Shown here one piece after another: positions 4,185-16,692 of a stretch of 60,529 bases of DNA. Under the pieces are notes generated by a model. That model had not been told where the DNA came from. It was given only the letters and a program-made list of their open reading frames with translations, and did not search any database. A program made the position numbers and the translations under genes. Position 1 is the first letter of the stretch; the number at the start of each line of letters is the position of its first letter. Source of the stretch: an uncultured archaeon (GTDB lineage Archaea; Asgardarchaeota; Lokiarchaeia; Sigyniarchaeales; SOKP01); contig CAYLZE010000019.1 in assembly GCA_964388035.1 (NCBI GenBank), forward strand, positions 1-60,529. The letters run 5' to 3'.

Positions 4185-5420
4185 TTAATTAGATTTTACG
4201 ATATATTTTTGATAAAGAATGATACCAATACCAATGAATAGAAAAATGTAGAGTATCAGCCCTATCACTTGGAAAATGTCAATAGCACCACCAGTAAGTA
4301 GCGTACTAAACGTGATGGTATTACAATAGGTAAATGGAATTAAATTTACGATGGTTTCCAAGAGACCTCCATACATTTCTACCCCTATAAACCCTCCACA
4401 TAAGAATAACAAGCCAATAACTAAAAATGCAGATACGGGAATGGTAAATACTTGTTCGGGGATGATTATGCCTATGAGAGAGCCCATAGCGGCGCCCAAG
4501 GACAAAGTGCCGATGGATATTAAAAGAAACCCCAGAAGATCTGCCGGGAAGGGAAGCCCAATCCATAGAAATACAATCAAGGTTCCTAATATGAAATCTA
4601 CTAGAAAAGAGAGAATTAATGCAGAGATTATTTTGCCCAAATAGGTGTAATTTTGATTAGACTTGGAGGCTAAGGCAAGTTCTGGTCGCATGTTATCATT
4701 TTTTTCGTTGAAAATGAAAGCAGCGGATAATATCATGGACGAAATCAAGGACAAGAATACTATCGCTCCCGACCCTATCGTCCAAATCCGAGGTAATGTG
4801 GGTCTATTCGGATGAGCATCCTTGTATATATAAGTAACCTCTACTTGCCCATTCAAAACATTATCATAATACGCTTTCAGCTTTCTTTCAAAACAGAAAT
4901 AAATGTTCTTTAAATAATCTTCATTCACGTTTAAGCATTGTAACTCGATTATTATTTCTCCACCGTTCCAAGACCCTTTCTTCACCACTTTAATGATATG
5001 TTCGAAATTCTTGGGCAATATTACCACTAGAGAAATATCTTGTTGGCGCAATTCATCTATAAACTGTTCTTGGGAAGTCCCTATATATTCAATATGGCTT
5101 TTAACTATAGTTGGTCCAACTAAATCATTATCATTTAGATAATTTAGAAATTCTTGAGTATTTGGTAAGCTATTTGTCTCCAAAGCTTGATTAAGGTCTT
5201 CATCCGTTTTAAAATCAGGTATTACTATTGCCATTCCATAATTCATATTAGGCGTAGTAAACACCAAAGACATGAAAAATAAATAAATTAAGGGAAATAC
5301 TAACGTCAAGAGTAGTATGACTCTCGATTCTCCTCTTAAGACGATGCGGATGTTTTTTTTGATTTCCGTGCCTATTAATCTAAGTGCGTTTTTATTACTC
5401 TTTTTTTCCTTGCTTTTCAT
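4185..5420 (-). CDS. ABC-2 type exporter permease
   Basis: N-terminal TM, extracellular loop, several C-terminal TMs. Start moved to the ATG at 5420, which overlaps the upstream stop (ATGA). Confidence 0.85.
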   Translation of the reverse strand: MKSKEKKSNKNALRLIGTEIKKNIRIVLRGESRVILLLTLVFPLIYLFFMSLVFTTPNMNYGMAIVIPDFKTDEDLNQALETNSLPNTQEFLNYLNDNDLVGPTIVKSHIEYIGTSQEQFIDELRQQDISLVVILPKNFEHIIKVVKKGSWNGGEIIIELQCLNVNEDYLKNIYFCFERKLKAYYDNVLNGQVEVTYIYKDAHPNRPTLPRIWTIGSGAIVFLSLISSMILSAAFIFNEKNDNMRPELALASKSNQNYTYLGKIISALILSFLVDFILGTLIVFLWIGLPFPADLLGFLLISIGTLSLGAAMGSLIGIIIPEQVFTIPVSAFLVIGLLFLCGGFIGVEMYGGLLETIVNLIPFTYCNTITFSTLLTGGAIDIFQVIGLILYIFLFIGIGIILYQKYIVKSN

Positions 5421-6613
5421 TCTCTGAATCCCTCCCTTGAAATGAAGTACCACATTAATATCGTTAATGGAATAGCAATCATTGTTAATATCGCTAATCG
5501 TAACAAGCTATATTCTAACGAGGGTAAAAAAGTTTCGGCAAAAAGGATTTCCATCCAATACGTGCCCGGAAAAAATCTGGAAGCAATGTACATGTTTGGA
5601 CCTAATATCTTAATCGGTGCAAATCCTCCCATGAAAAAGAACATCAATATGGAACTTACAATACTAATTAAAGTAACGGACATAATATTTTTAATTTTCA
5701 ATCCGATAAGTCCACCGATACAAGCATGCAACCAAGTGGAAATAATAAATGCACAAGCCACAATTAAAAGATTTCCTCGGAACTCGATATTGAAGCTAAT
5801 AAATATTATAGACCCAATTACTCCTACTACGATTAGCCCCAGAATAATGGCAATTATTTGCTTCGACGCGATATAAGCCGTACGCTTTACAGGACTCATT
5901 GCAATCTCAATGATGGTCAAATCTTCGTATTCTTTCGTAACATTCAAAGACCCATAAAGCAAGCCACATACTACACCGTAAATCCCTAAAATTCCAATGG
6001 CAAACCCTTTTAAATTACTAATTTGTTGATCAATTACATATGTTTTTTTTGCCACCAATTCTGCCTTGTTACCATTTCTATGAGCAACACTCGTTTTTTG
6101 ATTAAATTCTAAAACGGCCTCATCCATTCTTTGGATATAATTTTTTACGTAATCATTATTAACATTTTGTACTTCTAAAATTAACGTCCCTTTTATTCGG
6201 AAATTTCTTGATGTAATATTCTTCTGAAAGCCCTCAGGAATGTAAATTAATCCCATTATTTCGTAATTTAGTAATTTTATTTGGGCAGATTCATAGCTAT
6301 CCATTATATACACGGTAAACCATGGTGCAAATTCACTCGAAATGTTTTCAATACACTCCGTCATTAATTCAGAATAATGGGATTTATCATCATCAACTAA
6401 CATGACGTTATAGGTTTCGGGATTATCAGATTCAAGAACAGAACTAAAAACCACGAGCAAGATTAGCGGTGGGATGACTGCCGCAAAAAAATATTTTTTA
6501 ACGCGCTTGGTTGAGAGGAGATCCTTCTTTAAAATTGTTAATAAATCTCGAAACCATTTTTTCTTGGAAGAAAAGCGATAAGATTTGGATCTCCCATCCT
6601 TTTCGTGTTCCAT
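5417..6613 (-). CDS. ABC-2 type exporter permease
   Basis: Same topology; KEYEDLTI...SPV signature; translationally coupled to both neighbours. Confidence 0.88.
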   Translation of the reverse strand: MEHEKDGRSKSYRFSSKKKWFRDLLTILKKDLLSTKRVKKYFFAAVIPPLILLVVFSSVLESDNPETYNVMLVDDDKSHYSELMTECIENISSEFAPWFTVYIMDSYESAQIKLLNYEIMGLIYIPEGFQKNITSRNFRIKGTLILEVQNVNNDYVKNYIQRMDEAVLEFNQKTSVAHRNGNKAELVAKKTYVIDQQISNLKGFAIGILGIYGVVCGLLYGSLNVTKEYEDLTIIEIAMSPVKRTAYIASKQIIAIILGLIVVGVIGSIIFISFNIEFRGNLLIVACAFIISTWLHACIGGLIGLKIKNIMSVTLISIVSSILMFFFMGGFAPIKILGPNMYIASRFFPGTYWMEILFAETFLPSLEYSLLRLAILTMIAIPLTILMWYFISREGFRE

Positions 6614-7626
6614 TATTCTCTGAACTCCTTACCGGTTAATTTAAGAAATACATCTTCTAAAGTAGATTTTTTTAGCGTGAATTCTTCGATACTAATGTTG
6701 CTTTTTCGGGCATGAGCTAAAAATTGTTCCAAAATATCTTGGAGGTTCTTAGATTGAAAGGTAATGCGGAAAAGGGATTCTTCTTCACTAATTTGCTTCT
6801 CTTCGTGGAAGTTTTCAATTAATTCCATGGGTAACAAAGTAGATAATGTACTGGAATCGAGGGAATCTTTTTTAGCTTTAAATTCAAAAATTGTCTCGGG
6901 AAAATAACGTTCTTGAATTTTCTGCAAGCGATCTGGACCCGCTACCATTTTAGTATCTATTATTATAATGCGGTCCGCTAATTTTTCAGCTTCTTCCATG
7001 TAATTGGTAGTTAATATGATCGTCATCCCTTTTTGAGCTAATTCCATGATATAGTCATGGATAGCTTTCCGGCTTTGAACATCGATTCCCAGGGTGGGCT
7101 CGTCCAAAATCAAGATTTGAGGGGCATGGAGCATTGCTCGAACTAATTGTAATCTTCGCATCATTCCTCCAGAATATGTTCTAACCAGATCATCTTGACG
7201 ATTTTTTAATCCAGCAATGGTTAGCATATGATCCACTTTTTCTCCGAGATCATTTTTATAAATACCATACAATCTCCCGTGAAATTCAAGGTTCTCTCGT
7301 CCCGTGAGCTCGCGATATAATGCTATTTCCTGTGATACTAATCCAAAATCACCTAATAATACTTTTCTATCTTTAACCGGGTCTTTACCCTCGATCAAGA
7401 TTGTACCACCGGTAGGTTTAATTTGTCCCGTCAGTAATTTAACAAATGTGGATTTTCCCGCCCCGTTCGGTCCCACTAGACAGAAAATCTCCCCTTTATG
7501 AATATCAAAGGAAAATTGGTCTAAAGCAACAATATTCTCGTATTTCTTAGTAAGCTCTCTAACACTGATGATGGTTTGGTTGGATTTCTGCTTTGTTTTA
7601 TTTTCGGAATCAGGCAATTTTATCAT
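6613..7626 (-). CDS. ABC exporter ATP-binding subunit (DrrA-like)
   Basis: GPNGAGKS, YSGGM, LILDEPT, C-terminal LEDVFLKLTG. Confidence 0.95.
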   Translation of the reverse strand: MIKLPDSENKTKQKSNQTIISVRELTKKYENIVALDQFSFDIHKGEIFCLVGPNGAGKSTFVKLLTGQIKPTGGTILIEGKDPVKDRKVLLGDFGLVSQEIALYRELTGRENLEFHGRLYGIYKNDLGEKVDHMLTIAGLKNRQDDLVRTYSGGMMRRLQLVRAMLHAPQILILDEPTLGIDVQSRKAIHDYIMELAQKGMTIILTTNYMEEAEKLADRIIIIDTKMVAGPDRLQKIQERYFPETIFEFKAKKDSLDSSTLSTLLPMELIENFHEEKQISEEESLFRITFQSKNLQDILEQFLAHARKSNISIEEFTLKKSTLEDVFLKLTGKEFRE

Positions 7627-7696
7627 TTTTGCATCATTTTCTTGTTGTATAATTCATTTATTTGATAATACACAAATTTAATTTTTAGTAAATTAT

Positions 7697-7712
7697 TACT
7701 ACTTTAGTAGTA
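7697..7712. promoter_or_regulatory. Palindromic operator TACTAC-TTTA-GTAGTA between the divergent ABC operon and the TrmB gene
   Basis: Perfect 6-bp inverted repeat just upstream of the TATA-like TTATATAAA; resembles TACT..AGTA TrmB-type sites. Confidence 0.55.
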
Positions 7713-7757
7713 TAATTACCATTATATAAATTTAATCAGCCTTTATTGTAAAAGACC

Positions 7758-8612
7758 ATGCACGATTTAGAAGAGTTATTGGATCAGCTGGGATTTAAAA
7801 GATATGAAATACAATGCCTTAGTACATTACTTAAATATAAATTCTTGAATGCAAGAGAAGCTTACAAGTACAGTGGAGTTCCCCAACCGAAAATATATGA
7901 AACCATGAATGATTTAAAAGAAAAAGGATTGATTGATATTGACGTTTCCAAAAAAATAAAAATCTATCGAATCAAGCCAAAATATATCATCATGAATTAT
8001 ATCGAAAGCGAAGTCAAAAAAATTAATGAATTAGGTAAAGAAAGCAAAAACCTTATTGATAATTTATATGGATCCGAAGAATCCGAAGAGATTTCTTTTA
8101 TTGGTGTTGCGGGAATGGAAAAGGTATTAGAATTCATGTATTCTGAAATAGATGCGGCCGAAAAATCCATATACATGTTTTATTCTCCTTCCCATTTCAA
8201 CCAAAAAATAATTACTCTTTTAAAAAAAAAGAAAAGCCAGAATGTCGATGTTAAACTCTTTTTTCATAAGGAAGAAGATATCTCATCTTTAAAAAATCAA
8301 TTGTCAAAAAATATAGAAATCAAAAAAATGAGAAATTCCATCAGTAAACCCCTACAAATGCTTTTTACAATGGTTGAAAAATTCTTGACAAAGGAACAAA
8401 GTAATAGTGAAATATTCGATGTCATTAAAAAAATAGGTTCAGATATTAGCGAAATTTTTGGAATCCTCCTTATAGATGAAAAAAAAAGTCTTTTTCGCAT
8501 CCCATTGCCCATTGAAACTCCCATGGTAATTTTATCCACCCTTCCCGAAATTGTAGAGTTCCATTTGGAGGGGATTCGAAAGATAATGGAAAATTCAGAA
8601 GTTGTCCACTAG
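7758..8612 (+). CDS. TrmB-family transcriptional regulator
   Basis: LGFKRYE...SGVPQPKIYETMNDLKEKGLI winged HTH plus PLD-like effector region. Confidence 0.9.
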   Translation: MHDLEELLDQLGFKRYEIQCLSTLLKYKFLNAREAYKYSGVPQPKIYETMNDLKEKGLIDIDVSKKIKIYRIKPKYIIMNYIESEVKKINELGKESKNLIDNLYGSEESEEISFIGVAGMEKVLEFMYSEIDAAEKSIYMFYSPSHFNQKIITLLKKKKSQNVDVKLFFHKEEDISSLKNQLSKNIEIKKMRNSISKPLQMLFTMVEKFLTKEQSNSEIFDVIKKIGSDISEIFGILLIDEKKSLFRIPLPIETPMVILSTLPEIVEFHLEGIRKIMENSEVVH

Positions 8613-8760: not shown

Positions 8761-9792
8761 GTGGGAAGTTTTCCCTTACCGACTTACATTGATAAAGAAG
8801 CATTCAATAAGTTTTATTGGATCGCGTATGATGCAATTCTAAATAAATCCGATATTTATCAAAATAGAGGGATTTATAATTTTTATGTCCATCCCCTTCT
8901 CCAGTCCTTTCAGCAAAAAATCAACGCGGGAGTGGAAATAATTAACTTTCCTCAGCACATGAACATGTATACTCAATTTTTAAAACCCATCAATGATCAT
9001 GAACTGCAACCCAATTTAATCGATCCCCAAAAAGCAATAATTACGGAAATGGTCATTTTAGAGCATTTTGCAAAGGAATTTTATGAAAGGACTCAAAATG
9101 TACTAAGAGTGAAGGTATGCATCACCGGACCCATCGAATTATACGTTAAAAAACAAGGATTCACGTTATATAAGGATTTAGCTCTTAATTTTTCAAAATC
9201 TATCAATTCCTTCTTGAAAAATTCGATAATAAATAACAAGTATATGAAAACGGAAATAATCTCCATTGATGAGCCTTCTTTGGGCTATATAGATATTTTT
9301 GGCATATCAGATGATGATCTAATAACTATCTATGACAAATCCCTGGAGCAAATCGACTCAATTAATGAAATTCATTTACATTCTCTCAATCGTGCGGATT
9401 TGGCGTTAAAATCAAAAAATATCGATGTCTTGACTTGTGAATATGCGTCAGATAATAAAAATGAAATTCCTAAAAAAGAGTTAGAATCTCACGATAAATA
9501 TATCCGAGTAGGAATAACTCGAACCAACATAGATTCCATCATTGCAGAAGCTTTAGATTCCGGAATCTCCTACGAAGAAATCAGGACTTTTGAGGGCGCC
9601 ATGAGCTTGATTGACTCGAAAGAATTTATTAAGAAAAATCTTTTACATGCCATGGCTCATTACGGGGATAGATTAAAGTATGTTGGTCCGGATTGCGGAT
9701 TATCAGGATGGCCATTCCCCCAAGTGGCTCACGAATTATTACATCGAACGTATGAAGTGATTCAAGAAGTAAAACGGGAACAATCTGCATGA
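8761..9792 (+). CDS. Cobalamin-independent methionine synthase-like protein (MetE catalytic domain, archaeal type); true start probably upstream
   Basis: (DD)VGSFP, CITGP, SIDEP, IHLH, GPDCGL; the frame is open upstream to 8713. Confidence 0.78.
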   Translation: MGSFPLPTYIDKEAFNKFYWIAYDAILNKSDIYQNRGIYNFYVHPLLQSFQQKINAGVEIINFPQHMNMYTQFLKPINDHELQPNLIDPQKAIITEMVILEHFAKEFYERTQNVLRVKVCITGPIELYVKKQGFTLYKDLALNFSKSINSFLKNSIINNKYMKTEIISIDEPSLGYIDIFGISDDDLITIYDKSLEQIDSINEIHLHSLNRADLALKSKNIDVLTCEYASDNKNEIPKKELESHDKYIRVGITRTNIDSIIAEALDSGISYEEIRTFEGAMSLIDSKEFIKKNLLHAMAHYGDRLKYVGPDCGLSGWPFPQVAHELLHRTYEVIQEVKREQSA

Positions 9793-9845: not shown

Positions 9846-10679
9846 TCAAAATTTCAATGCTTCTAATTTTAAAAATTGTTCATTTAGTTCTTTAGGATCC
9901 CCTGTAGAGTATATTTTTCTGATTTGAGGTTTCGCTATCATGCAAACAAGACCAGCAAGGAGCCTCGGTATGGTTCCTACTTTAACATCAACGTAAAAGT
10001 TCCTATCTTCATCCAGCCATCCTTGTTCAAGCCAATATTTATAATCAGCATTAGTTTCATCTTTCGTCAGATTATACATGTATTTTCTTATTTTAAACCC
10101 AATTACATCTCCTGAACTTGGTTTTTTATATTTTTTTTCTCTTAATGCTTTTACGAATACTTTACAAGTTTTTTGAATCTGCTTGGTCATCTTCTTTTCT
10201 GCTCCTTCATAGGGAATCGTATTCAATTCTAATCGATTTACAAAATTAAAGCCCCAAGCATTAGCTACCATGTTGAAATACCTTGTAACCTCTTTTGCTC
10301 CAGAAATTCCGTAATTACAAACGCCTATTGCTATTTTTCTAAAAAAGCGAGGTCTATGAAAAATGTATGAAAACCGGTCGAAAAAATTCTTCATGAGAGC
10401 GGGAACATTCAAAGCATACGCGGGAGCCATAAAAATTACGCCGTCTGCTTGATTAATCTTATTTAAAATATCGTCCCGGTCGTCTTTTCCAACTGGGCAC
10501 TTATCTTCTCCTTTAAAAAAGCAATTCAAACATCCCCGACATGATTCTAAATGAACATCTTTAAGATATAAGTATTCAAAATCCACTTCTTGAAGTAATT
10601 TTAATTCTTGTTCTAACTTTTCCATAACTATAGTCCCATATCCCTTTCTAGGACCGCCCATGATTGTTAAAACTTTCAT
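9846..10679 (-). CDS. Flavodoxin-like / iron-sulfur flavoprotein (NADPH-dependent FMN reductase family)
   Basis: GGPRKG, CRGCLNC...C, ADGVIFMAPAY, MKNFFDR. Confidence 0.85.
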   Translation of the reverse strand: MKVLTIMGGPRKGYGTIVMEKLEQELKLLQEVDFEYLYLKDVHLESCRGCLNCFFKGEDKCPVGKDDRDDILNKINQADGVIFMAPAYALNVPALMKNFFDRFSYIFHRPRFFRKIAIGVCNYGISGAKEVTRYFNMVANAWGFNFVNRLELNTIPYEGAEKKMTKQIQKTCKVFVKALREKKYKKPSSGDVIGFKIRKYMYNLTKDETNADYKYWLEQGWLDEDRNFYVDVKVGTIPRLLAGLVCMIAKPQIRKIYSTGDPKELNEQFLKLEALKF

Positions 10680-10890
10680 TTTTAACAGCCTTATTTCACT
10701 ACTTAATTAATGATAATATGGGGGCAACGATAAAAGAAACAATAGGAGACCAATTTTTCAAAATTCCATCTTAAATATGCCTCTTTCTTAAAGAAAGAAG
10801 ATTAATAAATGTATTCTAAAAATTAAATAAAGAATTAAGTTGTTATTATACATTTGAAATTTGATCCTTAAAAAGTCTCTATTCTAGAAA
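10657..10890 (+). repeat. Duplicated segment (flavoprotein 5' end plus upstream intergenic), second copy at ~12482-12720
   Basis: Shared CCCATGA..GTTAAAA.TTTCA, TTTCACTACTTAATTAATG, AATAGGAG.CCAATTTT, AAAGAATTAAG, ACATTTGAA. Confidence 0.85.
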
Positions 10891-10914: not shown

Positions 10915-10972
10915 TCGTGTGAGTGAAGTCAGACTGTTAATTTTGAGAGTAAATAAATCGTTGGATAATTAA
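10915..10972 (+). pseudogene. Remnant of the Hsp20 gene 3' end
   Basis: Reads ..LLILRVNKSLDN* versus ..LVILRVNKSMNN* at the end of 12911-13528; GAGTAAATAAATCG is shared. Confidence 0.8.
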
Positions 10973-11062
10973 ATATCAATTAAAATTATATAAATAAACA
11001 AATTAAAGAAATAGTATAGGTCGAATCAAATTAATTGACGTGAAAAAAGAAGTGAGAATAAT

Positions 11063-12421
11063 ATGGGTTTTGCTAGAGAGTTTAAAGGAAAGTTTTGTAA
11101 ACTCAGAGTCAAGGATGCGTTTAAAAATGATGCCGGGAGAGGACTCGTGCGAATTGATCCTATTATAGAGGATGATTTAAACCTGCGAACGGGAGATGTT
11201 ATAGAAATTCTTCATCCGTTAATTAAGAAGAGAACGGCTGCGTTATTATTTCCCGGCAAGGATGAAGATAAAGGATCTAATACAATACGGATTGATCCTT
11301 CACTGCGGAGGAATTTAAATGTCTCAATAGATAATGTCGTAGTAATAAGAAAGATAGAGGCTGCGTTAGCTACCAAGGTTACATTTGCAGGATTGGAGAT
11401 AGCAGTAAACTTGAGGAATTCCCAGCAATTGGCAAAAAAATTAGAAAATCGCATTATTACCAAGGAAGATATCTTGGGCTTCTATGCCAATGAAAGGAGG
11501 GTAGATTTAATTGTTGTTGATTACACCCCACGGGCAGATGCCGTGCGGATTCACGTGGATACAAAAATCATTTTATCTGAAAAAAGTCATAAAGAGCTTC
11601 AAGAATTAGAACGGAGTAGAGTGACTTATGAGGATATTGGGGGATTGGCAGATGAGATCCAGAAGATTAGAGAAATGATTGAATTGCCAATTCGTCATCC
11701 AGAATTATTTAAACGCATTGGTATTGATCCTCCGAAAGGCGTATTGCTTCATGGACCACCAGGGACAGGTAAAACTTTACTAGCACAAGCGGTTGCAAAT
11801 GAAACAGAAGCTAACTTCATAAGGATAAATGGTCCCGATATCATGAGCAAGTTCTACGGACAGAGCGAAAAGAATTTAAGAAATATATTTACAGAAGCGA
11901 AAGAAATGGCTCCTTCCATTATCTTTATTGACGAGTTGGATTCCATTGCTCTAAAAAGGAGTAAAGTAAGGGGAGAAGTAGAGCGAAGAATGGTAGCCCA
12001 ATTATTATCCTTAATGGATGAATTAGAAGGAAGGGGAGAAATCGTTGTCATTGGAGAGACTAATCGGGTGAATGATGTAGATCCTGCATTGCGTCGACCG
12101 GGCAGATTCGATAGAGAGATTGAGATCGGGGTTCCTGATGCGGATGGAAGGTATGAAATTTTACAAATTCACACTCGAGGGATGCCTTTATGTCAGGATG
12201 TAGATTTAAGGTTCATTGCCAAGAAAACCCAAAAATTCGTGGGAGCAGATGTTGAAGCCTTGACTAAAGAAGCCGCCATGTTGGCGATCAGAGAAATATT
12301 ACCTAAAATTAATCTTGATAAACCCATTCCAGTGAAATTATTAACCAATTTGAATATAAAAATGAAGCATTTTCAGACAGCCATTACGGTTATCAAGAAT
12401 CAATTCAAAAAGATGAATTAG
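11063..12421 (+). CDS. cdc48: Truncated CDC48/VAT paralogue (N domain plus D1 AAA ring only)
   Basis: Collinear with the first ~440 residues of 13620-15842; [15 protein letters not shown] and RRPGRFD intact; no D2. Confidence 0.9.
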
Positions 12422-12480
12422 GAAAGAAAAGTAAAAATCATATTGATAATTTATATGGGTTCGGAGAATCCGAAGAGATT
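12391..12480 (+). pseudogene. TrmB gene fragment (copy of ~8000-8093) fused to the end of the short CDC48
   Basis: ATGAATTAGG, TATTGATAATTTATATGG and AGAATCCGAAGAGATT are shared with trmB. Confidence 0.85.
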
Positions 12481-12481
12481 C

Positions 12482-12720
12482 CCCATGACCGTTAAAATTT
12501 CACTTTTAACTGCCTTTTTTCACTACTTAATTAATGGATAATATGGGGTAATGATACAATATAATAATAGGAGCCCAATTTTTCTAATTTCTATCTAAAT
12601 TAAGAATCTCATTATATTATAAAATTAAAAAAAAAGTTCTTTTTTATAGAAGACAAAAAAAGAATTAAGCCGGTCTGAAACATTTGAACTTCTCTCCTCA
12701 AAAAGGATTCTATCTTGATA
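12482..12720 (+). repeat. Second copy of 10657-10890
   Basis: By-eye alignment; the flavoprotein start (CAT on + strand) appears here as CAC. Confidence 0.85.
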
Positions 12721-12844
12721 CCTCTCATGTTCTATTAGATACCTTTTATTATAATCAATAGGAGCTTTGCTTTTTTTTTTAATAGAAGTTAATAAAAACC
12801 TTTTAATAAGTGGCATTTTATAAATATAGTAGTGAAAAGAGAAG

Positions 12845-12910: not shown

Positions 12911-13528
12911 ATGGATGACAATGATGATGACTATATAGATTTTTATGAAAAAATAAAGGATTTTTTTAAGCACAATCCTAAAGTTTTCGATTTAGATTTT
13001 CTGATATTCACGGAACCCCAAAGTGGATCGGGTGATAAGAAAAAGAAATCGAAACCCGTAAAAGTTCATTATCATTTTGAACCGGGCATGGATAAACCCG
13101 ATGTAAAAGTTGAGGGAAATGTCAATGAACAAGATTTAAATGAATACTTTAAAAATTTCCGTTTTCCTTTTAACCCTCGAATGAGTGAGAGTACAAACAT
13201 TAAAAGAAATAAGGCATTCGATGCGAATAAATTATCATTGGAACCAGAAATAATTAAAGAAGCACCATCGGTAATAGAACCCAATTCTGAAATAAATGAA
13301 AAGGAAAATTGTCTTGATTTGGTATTTGAAGCGCCTGGTGTGGAAGAAGATGATGTTATCTTAAGTTTTAGTGATGATGGACTGAGCATGAACTTTTCTG
13401 CGGAAACGAATGATCGAAGGTATTTTAAACACGTCCATCTTCCCAGCACGTGCACTTTTAAGGGATATCAATTAAGTGTGAACAACGGACTGGTCATTCT
13501 GCGAGTAAATAAATCGATGAATAATTGA
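12911..13528 (+). CDS. Small heat-shock protein (Hsp20/alpha-crystallin family, archaeal type)
   Basis: EP...LVFEAPGVEEDDV, RRYFKHVHLP, NNGLVILRV; adjacent to cdc48. Confidence 0.82.
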   Translation: MDDNDDDYIDFYEKIKDFFKHNPKVFDLDFLIFTEPQSGSGDKKKKSKPVKVHYHFEPGMDKPDVKVEGNVNEQDLNEYFKNFRFPFNPRMSESTNIKRNKAFDANKLSLEPEIIKEAPSVIEPNSEINEKENCLDLVFEAPGVEEDDVILSFSDDGLSMNFSAETNDRRYFKHVHLPSTCTFKGYQLSVNNGLVILRVNKSMNN

Positions 13529-13619
13529 ATATCATATTAATAATATATAAATAACAAGATTAAAATAAAAATTCAAGTAGAATTAAATTAATTGACGTAA
13601 GAAAAGATGTGAGAATAAT

Positions 13620-15842
13620 ATGAGTTTTGCGAGCGAATTCAAGGGAAAAAGCCACAAGATCCGCGTCAAAGATGCATTTAAAGAAGACTCCGGCAGGGGA
13701 ATAGTACGATTGGACCCAACTGTTGAAGAAGAGTTGAAATTGCGCACGGGAGACGTGATTGAAATCTTGCATCCCGTAATTAATAAGAGAACCGCCGCGT
13801 TATTATATCCGGGTCGAGAAGAGGATAAAGATACTAATACCATAAGGATTGATCCCTCACTGCGGAGGAATTTAAATGTTTCTATTGATGATGTAGTAGA
13901 AATTAGGAAAATAGATGCTGCGTTAGCTACCAAGGTTACTTTTGCTGGATTGGAGGAAGCAGTGATATTGAGAAATTCCCAGCAATTGGCGAGAAAGTTA
14001 GAAAATCGTATTATCACCAAGGAAGATATTCTAAGTTTCTATGCCATGGGGCGTAGGGTAGATTTAGTGGTTGTGGACTATACTCCAAGGTCAGATGCCG
14101 TGCGGATTCACGTGGATACAAAAATCATTTTATCTGAAAAAAGTCATAAAGAGCTTCAAGAATTAGAACGGAGTAGAGTGACTTATGAGGATATTGGGGG
14201 ATTGGCAGATGAGATCCAGAAGATTAGAGAAATGATTGAATTGCCAATTCGTCATCCAGAATTATTTAAACGCATTGGTATTGATCCTCCGAAAGGCGTA
14301 TTGCTTCATGGACCACCAGGAACGGGTAAAACATTATTGGCACGAGCGGTTGCTTATGAAACCGAAGCACATTTTATAACAATAAGTGGACCCGAGATCA
14401 TGAGCAAGTTCTACGGACAAAGCGAAGAGAATTTAAGAAAAGTATTTACTGAGGCAAAAGAAATGGCTCCCTCTATTATCTTTATAGACGAACTGGATTC
14501 CATCGCTCCAAAAAGGGGTGAAGTGACGGGAGAAGTAGAGAGGAGAGTGGTGGCTCAATTATTATCCCTAATGGACGGTTTAGAAGGAAGAGGAGAGATC
14601 ATCGTTATTGGCGCGACCAATCGGGTAAATGATATAGATCCTGCATTACGTCGACCGGGTAGATTTGATAGAGAGATTGAGATTGGAGTTCCCGACACGG
14701 ATGGGAGGTATGAAATTTTGCAAATTCATACTCGAGGGATGCCGTTATACCAGGATGTAGATTTGAGACTCATTGCGGAGAAAACCCACGGATTTGTGGG
14801 TGCGGATGTTGAGGCTTTGGCGAAAGAAGCTGCCATGTTGGCGATCAGAGAATTATTACCTAAAATCAATCTTGATAAAACCATTCCAGCAGAATTATTA
14901 AACGATTTACAAATTAAAATGGAAAATTTTCAAACGGCGCTCATGAGTATAGAACCGTCTGCATTACGAGAAGTCTTAATTACTCAACCCACGGAGACCT
15001 GGGAGGATGTAGGTGGGTTAGATAATGCCATACAACAGCTGCAGGAAGTAATAGAATGGCCTTTAAAGTATCCTCAGTTATACAGTCATTTACATTCGAA
15101 ACCTCCGAGTGGAATCTTGTTATATGGGCCTCCAGGAACTGGAAAAACACTTGTAGCAAAAGCTTTAGCTCATGAAAGCGAGGTAAATTTCATTTCAGTC
15201 AAGGGACCAGAATTCTTATCCAAATGGGTGGGAGAGAGTGAAAAAGCCGTGAGGGAAACCTTTAGGAAAGCGCGGTCTGCCTCCCCTTGTATCATATTCT
15301 TTGATGAAATAGACGCCATCGCGGGAATGAGAGGGCGATATGCAAGTTCCCAAGTCACGGAGCAAGTAGTTTCTCAATTATTGACTGAAATGGATGGATT
15401 AGAGAGCCTGAAAGATGTTATTTTAATTGCGGCAACTAACAGAATGGACATGTTAGATCCTGCGCTTTTAAGGGCGGGTAGGTTTGGAAGACACGTTGAG
15501 ATTCCCTTACCCGATTTAAATGCAAGAAAAACCATTTTTAAAATTCATATCGGGAATAAACCGTTAGCTAGTGATGTGAATATAGAGAAAATGGCAGAAG
15601 CGTTAGAGGGATATACGGGGGCAGATATTGCAGCAATCTGCGAGGAAGCAACCCTAATAAGGATAAGAACTGCAATTTTAGAAGAAGCGACTAATCCTTA
15701 TGAAGAAGAGAGCATAAAGACGGTTAAAATAACGAGAGTAGATTTTGACGCAGCAATTGAAAAGATATTGAAATCCGCAGATAAGGCCCAAGAAGCGTAT
15801 AAACGATACGCCAAGGAACCTTCAGAAGAATTGTATAGATAA
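13620..15842 (+). CDS. cdc48: CDC48/VCP/VAT AAA+ ATPase (full length, N-D1-D2)
   Basis: Two Walker A (GPPGTGKT) and Walker B sets, KWVGESE pore loop, C-terminal LYR (HbYX). Confidence 0.97.
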
Positions 15843-15906
15843 AAGCGTTGCAACGATTTTATCGTTTTAAAATAAATGGAACATAAAATAAGGAGGAGAA
15901 AAAAAA

Positions 15907-16692
15907 TTGGAAGCCGAAAAACAAGCTCAGAAAGGAGTTAATCTTAGTCTAGATTCCTTATTGGAAATTTTGGGAAATCCAACAAGAAGAGTAATGTTAG
16001 CTAAACTTGCGAAAGTACCTCATTCCACTTCGGAATTAGCGCGATCCCTTAAAATCTCCCGACAAGCAGTACACAGTCAGCTTGATATTTTAACCAGCAG
16101 TAATCTCATAGAGAAAATCGGGCCAACAGATAAGAGAGGAAGTAAATACAGAATCAAATCAAATATAAACGTTAGAATTGATCTTTCTCCCGATTATTAT
16201 AATATCAGTTACAAGTTCTTTGATATCAAGAGTAAAGACATGAAAATAGCCTTGAATGATGCAGGAGTCACGCAAGAATTCTTTTCAAAAAAACCAAGCG
16301 AAAAAACCAAGGAAATTGCCAAAACAATTAAAGAGATTGAAACAGAATTAGAAGGGATAGAGTTGAAAAGACAATCCTTGATTAAAAGTAAGCAATGTTT
16401 AATTTCAGAACTAAAAAACATTATTGAAATGAATTATGATACGGCTTTCATTAAGGAAGATCCGGAATACGATAATTTAGAGAAAGAAATTGCTCTTTCT
16501 CTATTTTTTAAACCGAAACGGTATTTTAAACGTATAAATATCGATAAACTCTTAGAAGATCTCTTTTTTTCAGATATGGGGGTAATAAGAAAGGAACAAA
16601 GCAATTTATTAGTGAAACGTTTGCTAAAGGATATATCAAAATTCATGGATTTTATTTACGAAGAAGATGAATCTTGGTTCTTTGATATTTAA
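15907..16692 (+). CDS. ArsR-family HTH regulator with coiled coil (HSR1/Phr-like heat-shock regulator candidate)
   Basis: LGNPTRRVML...ELARSLKISRQAVHSQLDIL; cluster context; TTG start after AGGAGGAG. Confidence 0.8.
   Translation: MEAEKQAQKGVNLSLDSLLEILGNPTRRVMLAKLAKVPHSTSELARSLKISRQAVHSQLDILTSSNLIEKIGPTDKRGSKYRIKSNINVRIDLSPDYYNISYKFFDIKSKDMKIALNDAGVTQEFFSKKPSEKTKEIAKTIKEIETELEGIELKRQSLIKSKQCLISELKNIIEMNYDTAFIKEDPEYDNLEKEIALSLFFKPKRYFKRINIDKLLEDLFFSDMGVIRKEQSNLLVKRLLKDISKFMDFIYEEDESWFFDI

Follow-up and report, generated by a model that had tools for sequence, protein, structure and literature searches.

A full-length cdc48 gene of this Asgard archaeon is preceded by a second, shorter cdc48 copy that comprises only the N domain and the first ATPase module (D1). 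This arrangement raises the question of whether a single-ring derivative of a double-ring AAA+ protein has been retained as a gene, is slowly being lost, or was created by the assembly. The analysed window (the whole stretch of 60,529 nucleotides, contig C19; all coordinates refer to it, and features lie on the plus strand unless stated otherwise) belongs to a MAG with a size of 5.47 Mb in 211 contigs, a completeness of 96.7%, a contamination of 7.26%, and a GC content of 35%. Its closest protein matches are labelled Promethearchaeota/Lokiarchaeota, which marks the organism as a Loki-type Asgard archaeon. As the original prediction had stated, the short copy (P0001; 11063–12421) is an open frame of 452 codons, which encodes an N domain, the N-D1 linker, the D1 AAA module, and the lid. 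Pfam searches assigned CDC48_N, CDC48_2, a single AAA module, and AAA_lid_3 to it. The N domain, consisting of a double-psi barrel and a beta-clam, was recognized by PF02359 (E 9e-19, 67.9 bits, cut-off 35.1) and PF02933 (E 3e-5, 23.9 bits, cut-off 22.4). The only PF00004 stretch covers residues 227–356, and the frame ends seven codons past the D1 lid, leaving no tandem D1 + D2 arrangement.

The parent gene (P0002, 740 amino acids; 13620–15842) has the complete N-D1-D2 architecture with a C-terminal LYR (HbYX). It is a full member of the group formed by Thermoplasma VAT and archaeal CDC48, reaching 949.5 bits with TIGR01243 (cut-off 802.65) and an E value of 2e-217 against VAT (PDB 5G4F). TIGR01243 is also the best family for the short copy, which differs from the established members in scoring below the cut-off (504.4 bits, model positions 3–436 of 733) and in lacking both D2 and HbYX. 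The two proteins share 375 of 445 residues (84%) in an alignment without gaps, and the DNA block 10932–12381 is 83.7% identical to 13488–14938. The observation that many differences between the copies fall on third codon positions was borne out by the count (143 of 220 nucleotide differences). The D1 catalytic set is unchanged, with Walker A GPPGTGKT at residues 231–238, the Walker B residues DE at 290–291, sensor-1 N334, and the arginine fingers R345 and R348, and pore loop 1 (KFYG) is kept. Alignment to the parent thus agrees with the predicted integrity of Walker A, Walker B, and the arginine finger, and the exchanges of GATN to GETN (A332E) and of MDG to MDE (G320E) are both real. The predicted absence of D2 and the HbYX tail is equally evident, as the short protein ends with KNQFKKMN and the parent with EELYR. 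In addition, the D1-D2 linker (xPSALRE...) is absent from the short copy, the homology stopping at residue 445 immediately before PSALRE; the final seven codons and the TAG stop derive from the junction and a trmB-derived fragment.

The origin of this structure can be read from the flanking sequences. At the duplication junction (12396–12480), cdc48 homology ends near codon 445 and gives way to an out-of-frame internal fragment of trmB (12413–12480; 87% identity to 8026–8093), which contains the TAG stop. It is followed on the minus strand by a flavoprotein 5′ stub with its upstream intergenic block (block B′, 12482–12705; 74% identity to 10657–10875 with four gap events), of which only about 24 nt of frameshifted coding sequence belong to the flavoprotein. 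On the other side, a 3′ stub of about 40 nt (10932–10972) is all of hsp20 that is left upstream of the short copy. The hsp20, trmB, and flavoprotein pieces had been described beforehand as decayed to stubs, and this description fits. Intact single copies survive of trmB (7758–8612), a methionine-synthase-like gene (8761–9792), and an FMN reductase-like flavoprotein gene (9846–10679, minus strand). A 63-codon ORF (12625–12816, minus strand) between block B′ and hsp20 had no family match and is probably a chance ORF in an AT-rich spacer. The duplicated unit reached from within trmB through codon 445 of cdc48 and was a partial tandem duplication. Because the unit ended at this codon, the left-hand copy has lacked the D1-D2 linker, D2, and the HbYX tail from its origin onwards. 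After this founding tandem duplication, two later deletions removed one copy each of the trmB 3′ part, hsp20, and the genes for the methionine-synthase-like protein and the flavoprotein, and the N-D1 copy with its upstream region escaped them.

The fragmented state of the assembly and its 7.26% contamination would allow another origin, namely that sequences of two strains or species were joined into a chimera in the MAG, and an identical block of 229 nt shared by the two copies (see below) could mislead an assembler. However, the ordered and decayed fragments at the junction stem from trmB, the flavoprotein gene, and the intergenic block of the same contig with 74–87% identity, the divergence is similar on both flanks of the identical block, and no variant of the locus was found on any other contig of the MAG. 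Since no mis-join would produce diverged pieces of neighboring genes in their proper order, the tandem arrangement is regarded as real, pending read-level confirmation, and an artefact is very improbable.

Comparison with a genome of the same genus (G001; locus L021, C19:62000–77000) places the duplication within this lineage. The G001 locus consists of a methionine-synthase-like (metE-like) gene, hsp20, cdc48, and an HTH regulator in that order, and contains no trmB, no flavoprotein gene, and no short cdc48 copy. Relative to G001, the genome studied here has extra genes at two places (4185–8612 and 9846–10679). The first set comprises three minus-strand ORFs and trmB between a 657-aa ORF and the methionine-synthase-like gene, and the second is the FMN-reductase-like flavoprotein gene ahead of hsp20. 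These extra genes are lineage-specific insertions older than the duplication. In a nucleotide tree, the short copy and the parent were paired with 100% bootstrap support inside the genus clade, with G001 next to them. Segment-wise protein trees always placed the short copy in this four-member genus clade, with no settled place within the clade for codons 1–60 and 241–445.

The original prediction had also proposed a search for the gene in related genomes, and there its outcome was negative: the N-D1-only form of this orthologue was not found in 30 relatives, and it is absent from G001 and from 134 other family genomes (135 genomes of the family were covered, of which 124 carry the gene). Seven open frames in the family are shorter than 735 amino acids; six were checked and are all cut by contig ends, and the seventh (718 amino acids, in G100) is long enough for D2. 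Among the best 120 of 8000 scored proteins from a database of 5.8 billion, no short form was present, all being 735–743 amino acids long, and the closest outside orthologue of the parent among the listed matches (P0004) is 95% identical. With the short protein as query, JGI metagenome contigs yielded no second instance, the best relative being 74% identical. The short copy is thus a lineage-specific feature known from a single MAG and not a new class.

The divergence between the two copies is unevenly distributed. The identical block of 229 nt (11535–11763) spans codons 158–234 from the N-D1 linker to Walker A; a run of this length was reached in 0 of 20,000 codon shuffles, in which the longest run was 96 nt, and the block is a recent gene-conversion tract. 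Third-position identity between the copies is at the random level in codons 1–60 (0.38), rises to 0.64 in codons 61–150 and 0.91 in codons 151–240, amounts to approximately 0.70 in codons 241–420, and falls to 0.56 in codons 421–445. This segment-wise pattern identifies the pair as a mosaic of tracts homogenized at different times. Gene conversion has occasionally taken place between the copies, in the direction from or to the parent, and the average dS may underestimate the age of the duplication. In codons 1–60 of the parent (13620–13799), GC3 is 0.52; it is 0.48 in the G001 orthologue, 0.33 in the short copy, and 0.30–0.39 in the rest of both genes. Together with the saturated third positions in this segment, these values indicate that a GC-rich 5′ patch present in the parent has been lost from the short copy.

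The sequence preceding the short copy has fared differently from its first codons. The duplicated upstream region (10932–11062) comprises the hsp20 3′ stub, a TATA-like element (TTATATAAATA, 10986–10996), a motif that also occurs upstream of the parent (AATTAATTGACGT, 11029–11041), and GTGAG before the ATG. Both AATTAATTGACGT and GTGAGAATAAT-ATG were found upstream of both cdc48 copies. The 84 nt preceding the ATG of the short copy are 80% identical to the parent upstream sequence, and 30 of 34 positions match in the adjoining hsp20-derived stretch, giving 80–88% identity over a total of 118 nt. As the third positions of codons 1–60 are at the random level, this conservation indicates that the upstream region has been either constrained or converted separately. 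The short copy had been credited with its own copy of the cdc48 promoter; judged by its conservation, the duplicated upstream sequence is a putative promoter. The motif AATTAATTGACGT was also considered as a shared operator and rejected, since it occurs in exact form nowhere but upstream of both copies of cdc48 and its near matches are no commoner than in shuffled sequences.

Whether the reading frame itself has been under selection was addressed with codon models (own GY94/F3x4 branch implementation, nine orthologue sequences, synonymous sites saturated towards the outgroup). The pairwise Nei-Gojobori comparison of short copy and parent gave a dN of 0.086, a dS of 0.715, and an omega of 0.12. 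In the branch model without a clock, omega amounted to 0.15 on the short branch, 0.04 on that of the parent, and 0.021 in the background, and an omega of 1 on the short branch was rejected (2dlnL = 12.2). As the two copies have coexisted in a single genome from the duplication onwards, equal dS was imposed on their branches in a further model, which yielded 0.19 for the short copy and 0.029 for the parent and rejected both neutrality of the short branch (2dlnL = 103) and equal omega of the two copies (2dlnL = 40). The original prediction had made its case dependent on dN/dS outside the identical block; leaving this block out did not change the results, and omega of the short copy stayed well below 1 with equal dS. 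Conversion resets dN and dS jointly and hence cannot explain the low omega.

The state of the frame leads to the same conclusion. The 1335-nt coding alignment contains no indel, compared to four gap events in the 290-nt non-coding block, and the short copy has acquired neither a stop nor a frameshift despite about 222 inferred substitutions on its branch. In simulations with the observed substitution spectrum, the probability of finding no stop was 0.013 after 100 neutral substitutions and less than 1/4000 after 222. Neutral decay of the short copy is rejected, and purifying selection has acted on it, roughly 7–9 times more weakly than on the parent. A branch-site model resolved this average into approximately 74% of codons with an omega of 0.02 and approximately 23% with an omega of 1 on the short branch, so that about three quarters of the codons are as constrained as in the orthologues and about one quarter is drifting freely, among them pore loop 2, the MDG motif, the position ahead of sensor 1, and the lid GxxGAD. 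No positive selection was seen on this branch in the branch-site test (foreground omega converged to 1, 2dlnL = 0), and codons with double hits, an excess of which would separate the release of a subset of sites from a recent release of all sites, were not significantly enriched (9 observed versus 6.2 expected, p = 0.18). The omega of 0.19 is an average compatible with both histories. The claim that selection has kept the short copy is therefore supported, given an omega of 0.15–0.19, the rejection of neutrality, the intact frame, and the conserved upstream region.

The amino acid replacements reveal the other side of this history. Polarization with the two nearest orthologues assigned 62 of 70 differences to the short branch and 7 to the parent branch. 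Of the short-branch changes, 25 affect columns with a conservation of 95% or more among 118 orthologues, whereas the G001 orthologue has one such change; nevertheless, short-branch changes are rarer at conserved than at other columns (25/281 versus 37/164, Fisher p = 1e-4). The near-invariant residues replaced include four in pore loop 2 of D1 (P297L, G300S, E301K, T303R), one in the MDG inter-subunit motif (G320E), the alanine two residues before sensor-1 N334 (A332E), and two in the lid motif GxxGAD (H390Q, G391K). Replacements on the short branch lean to N, K, and I, with 31 gains versus 14 losses of FYMINK residues. Core changes of the A342 type, such as A332E and G320E, might block proper folding or ring formation. 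AlphaFold2 monomer models based on a shallow alignment of 45 sequences were of low confidence, with a mean pLDDT of 64.4 for the short protein and 59.8 for parent residues 1–452, which served as a control with the same alignment, and did not discriminate between the two. The original prediction is hence supported with respect to the retention of the short copy but understated its decay, as seen from the concentration of changes on its branch, the neutral-like quarter of its codons, and the missing linker.

Changes at 25 near-invariant columns, a skew towards FYMINK residues, and absent positive selection are also the pattern of a slowly dying gene. The short copy could be a decaying leftover without a positive function, whose frame has stayed open through slow decay, refreshment by conversion, and the purging of misfolding or hexamer-poisoning variants for as long as it is expressed. 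The excess of changes on the short branch, the codons evolving at an omega of 1 with a foreground omega never above 1, the AT-biased replacements, the loss of motor motifs and the D1-D2 linker, the occurrence in a single genome, and the clear activity of gene conversion are all in line with this explanation. However, if the short branch were neutral, the pairwise omega would lie near 0.5 instead of at the observed 0.12, and conversion cannot lower omega. An omega of 1 was rejected with or without a clock, the frame is free of stops and indels, and the three other redundant gene copies were deleted, whereas the short copy was left in place together with its upstream region. A mere leftover is possible but less probable than the main reading given below.

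The replacements have also altered the charge of the protein, which could mirror a new role of the paralogue, for example in the binding of acidic partners or nucleic acids. Relative to the parent, the net charge of the short protein is higher by 16 and the pI has shifted from 5.5 to 9.0, from acidic to basic. Random non-synonymous mutation predicts a gain of 4.4 ± 5.6 (P = 0.023 for 16 or more), although this test used a symmetrized spectrum and its result is marginal. Long retention, with a dS of about 0.4–0.5 per branch and local saturation, would also suit a neofunctionalized paralogue. On the other hand, the branch-site test found no class with an omega above 1, and replacements of E by K and D by N go back to G-to-A mutations, as AT pressure at 35% GC would produce, making the acquisition of a new function quite unlikely.

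Upstream of the parent lies an intact hsp20-like gene (12911–13528; match to NF041800 with E 4e-13), and downstream a Phr-like winged-helix regulator (15907–16692; match to the heat shock transcription regulator family NF053602 with E 3.5e-13); both matches score under the curated cut-offs. An hsp20-like gene was present upstream of the cdc48 orthologue in 11 of 11 inspected loci of the family (L010–L020). The Phr/HSR1 regulons of Pyrococcus and Archaeoglobus contain an sHSP gene and an AAA+ ATPase gene (PMC10653856), and the row of hsp20-like, cdc48, and Phr-like genes (12911–16692) looks like an Asgard counterpart of this euryarchaeal heat-shock regulon. The likeness consists in the position of the parent between the two genes and in the family-wide hsp20-cdc48 pair; it differs from the known regulons in that both family matches are under their curated cut-offs and in that no operator was found. 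The genome encodes four full-length Cdc48 paralogues including the parent, and because its flanking genes match the composition of the Phr/HSR1 regulon, the parent is probably the stress-inducible one among them. The C-termini of the four are LYR, LYG, LFV, and FYK (the other three on contigs C94, C76, and C18; loci L002, L004, and L005), and judging from these residues, several of them may dock on the 20S proteasome. A further open frame of 422 amino acids (C82:21736–22590, minus strand) is similar to the parent in the D2 half alone (41% identity, residues 453–737) and encodes a single-AAA protein.

What the short protein might do can be approached through well-characterized relatives. Residues 8–467 of the parent align to residues 20–482 of p97, and by this alignment parent residue 445, where the homology of the short copy ends, corresponds approximately to p97 residue 460. 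The short copy therefore resembles laboratory N-D1 truncations of p97/VCP (the “short” 1–458/1–460 and “long” 1–481 constructs; PDB 3HU3 and relatives) in having the same N domain, N-D1 linker, and D1 with lid, the same end point at about residue 460, and Walker A/B plus both arginine fingers. [quoted passage not shown] Activity comes back on adding linker residues 460–472, the first half of the linker being what restores it, and the first 11 linker residues are conserved as far as VAT (PMC4730245). The short copy lacks exactly this conserved linker half (PSALRE...) needed for D1 ATPase activity (PMC4730245). It further differs from the p97 truncations in being a natural gene instead of a construct, in its altered pore loop 2, MDG motif, pre-sensor-1 residue, and lid, and in being basic, not acidic.

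A natural single-ring comparison is offered by AMA of Archaeoglobus and methanogens, an archaeal AAA protein that likewise combines a substrate-binding N domain with a single ring (PMC3493965). AMA, however, is old and widespread, and HbYX and activation of the 20S proteasome are common to all its members (PMC3493965), whereas the short copy is a recent derivative in one genome without HbYX. Archaeal CDC48 also needs its C-terminal HbYX for stimulation of the 20S proteasome (Forouzan et al., PMC3493965). As the short copy is devoid of both the linker segment and HbYX, a role as unfoldase or proteasome activator is very unlikely.

These considerations leave as the main reading a lineage-specific partial tandem duplicate of the heat-shock-locus cdc48 that is under weak purifying selection and has a presumed non-motor role, to which a probability of about 0.5 is assigned. 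The gene would be expressed from its duplicated heat-shock-type upstream region, and its product would fold like the laboratory N-D1 fragment of p97. Through the conserved D1 interface, it could form its own ring or mix into rings of the 84%-identical parent, retaining nucleotide binding and the binding of N-domain partners. It would have little ATPase or threading activity and would not open the gate of the 20S proteasome, so that it may serve as a binder without motor function or as a subunit that attenuates the stress Cdc48, rather than as an unfoldase. N-D1 fragments of p97 crystallize as rings. As the N domain, the nucleotide-binding residues, and the arginine fingers are kept as well, an ATPase-poor ring or parent-mixing subunit is the most economical model, and a retained protein of this kind is the most likely reading. 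The role as a holdase or in co-assembly with the parent that was envisaged in the original prediction is reasonable but hypothetical. The data agree with a partly degenerate, ATPase-poor derivative no less well than with one that is actively useful.

A more specific proposal is that the short copy encodes a selected N-D1-only subunit, co-induced with the heat-shock Cdc48, that would mix into its hexamers or cap them as a basic ring and thereby tune unfoldase output and proteasome coupling. This is unlikely; if true, the genome would itself encode an attenuator built into a double-ring AAA+ motor, and this Asgard archaeon would harbor a living intermediate between the double-ring and the single-ring architecture of AAA+ proteins.

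The CDC48 family itself is already known, and new here is the natural N-D1-only variant. As this is a feature of one genome, and of a MAG, its wider significance is limited either way. If the short copy is a slow-dying remnant, it provides a clean Asgard example of tandem duplication, reciprocal deletion, and gene conversion. If, according to the main reading, it is functional, it would be the natural counterpart of the much-studied N-D1 fragment of p97, and the parent and its 84%-identical truncated paralogue would be a ready pair for studying the effects of a D1-only subunit on Cdc48 rings. It would then also show that partial duplication on its own is enough to derive from a double-ring AAA+ unfoldase a single-ring form on which selection can act, in the lineage of archaea nearest to the eukaryotes.
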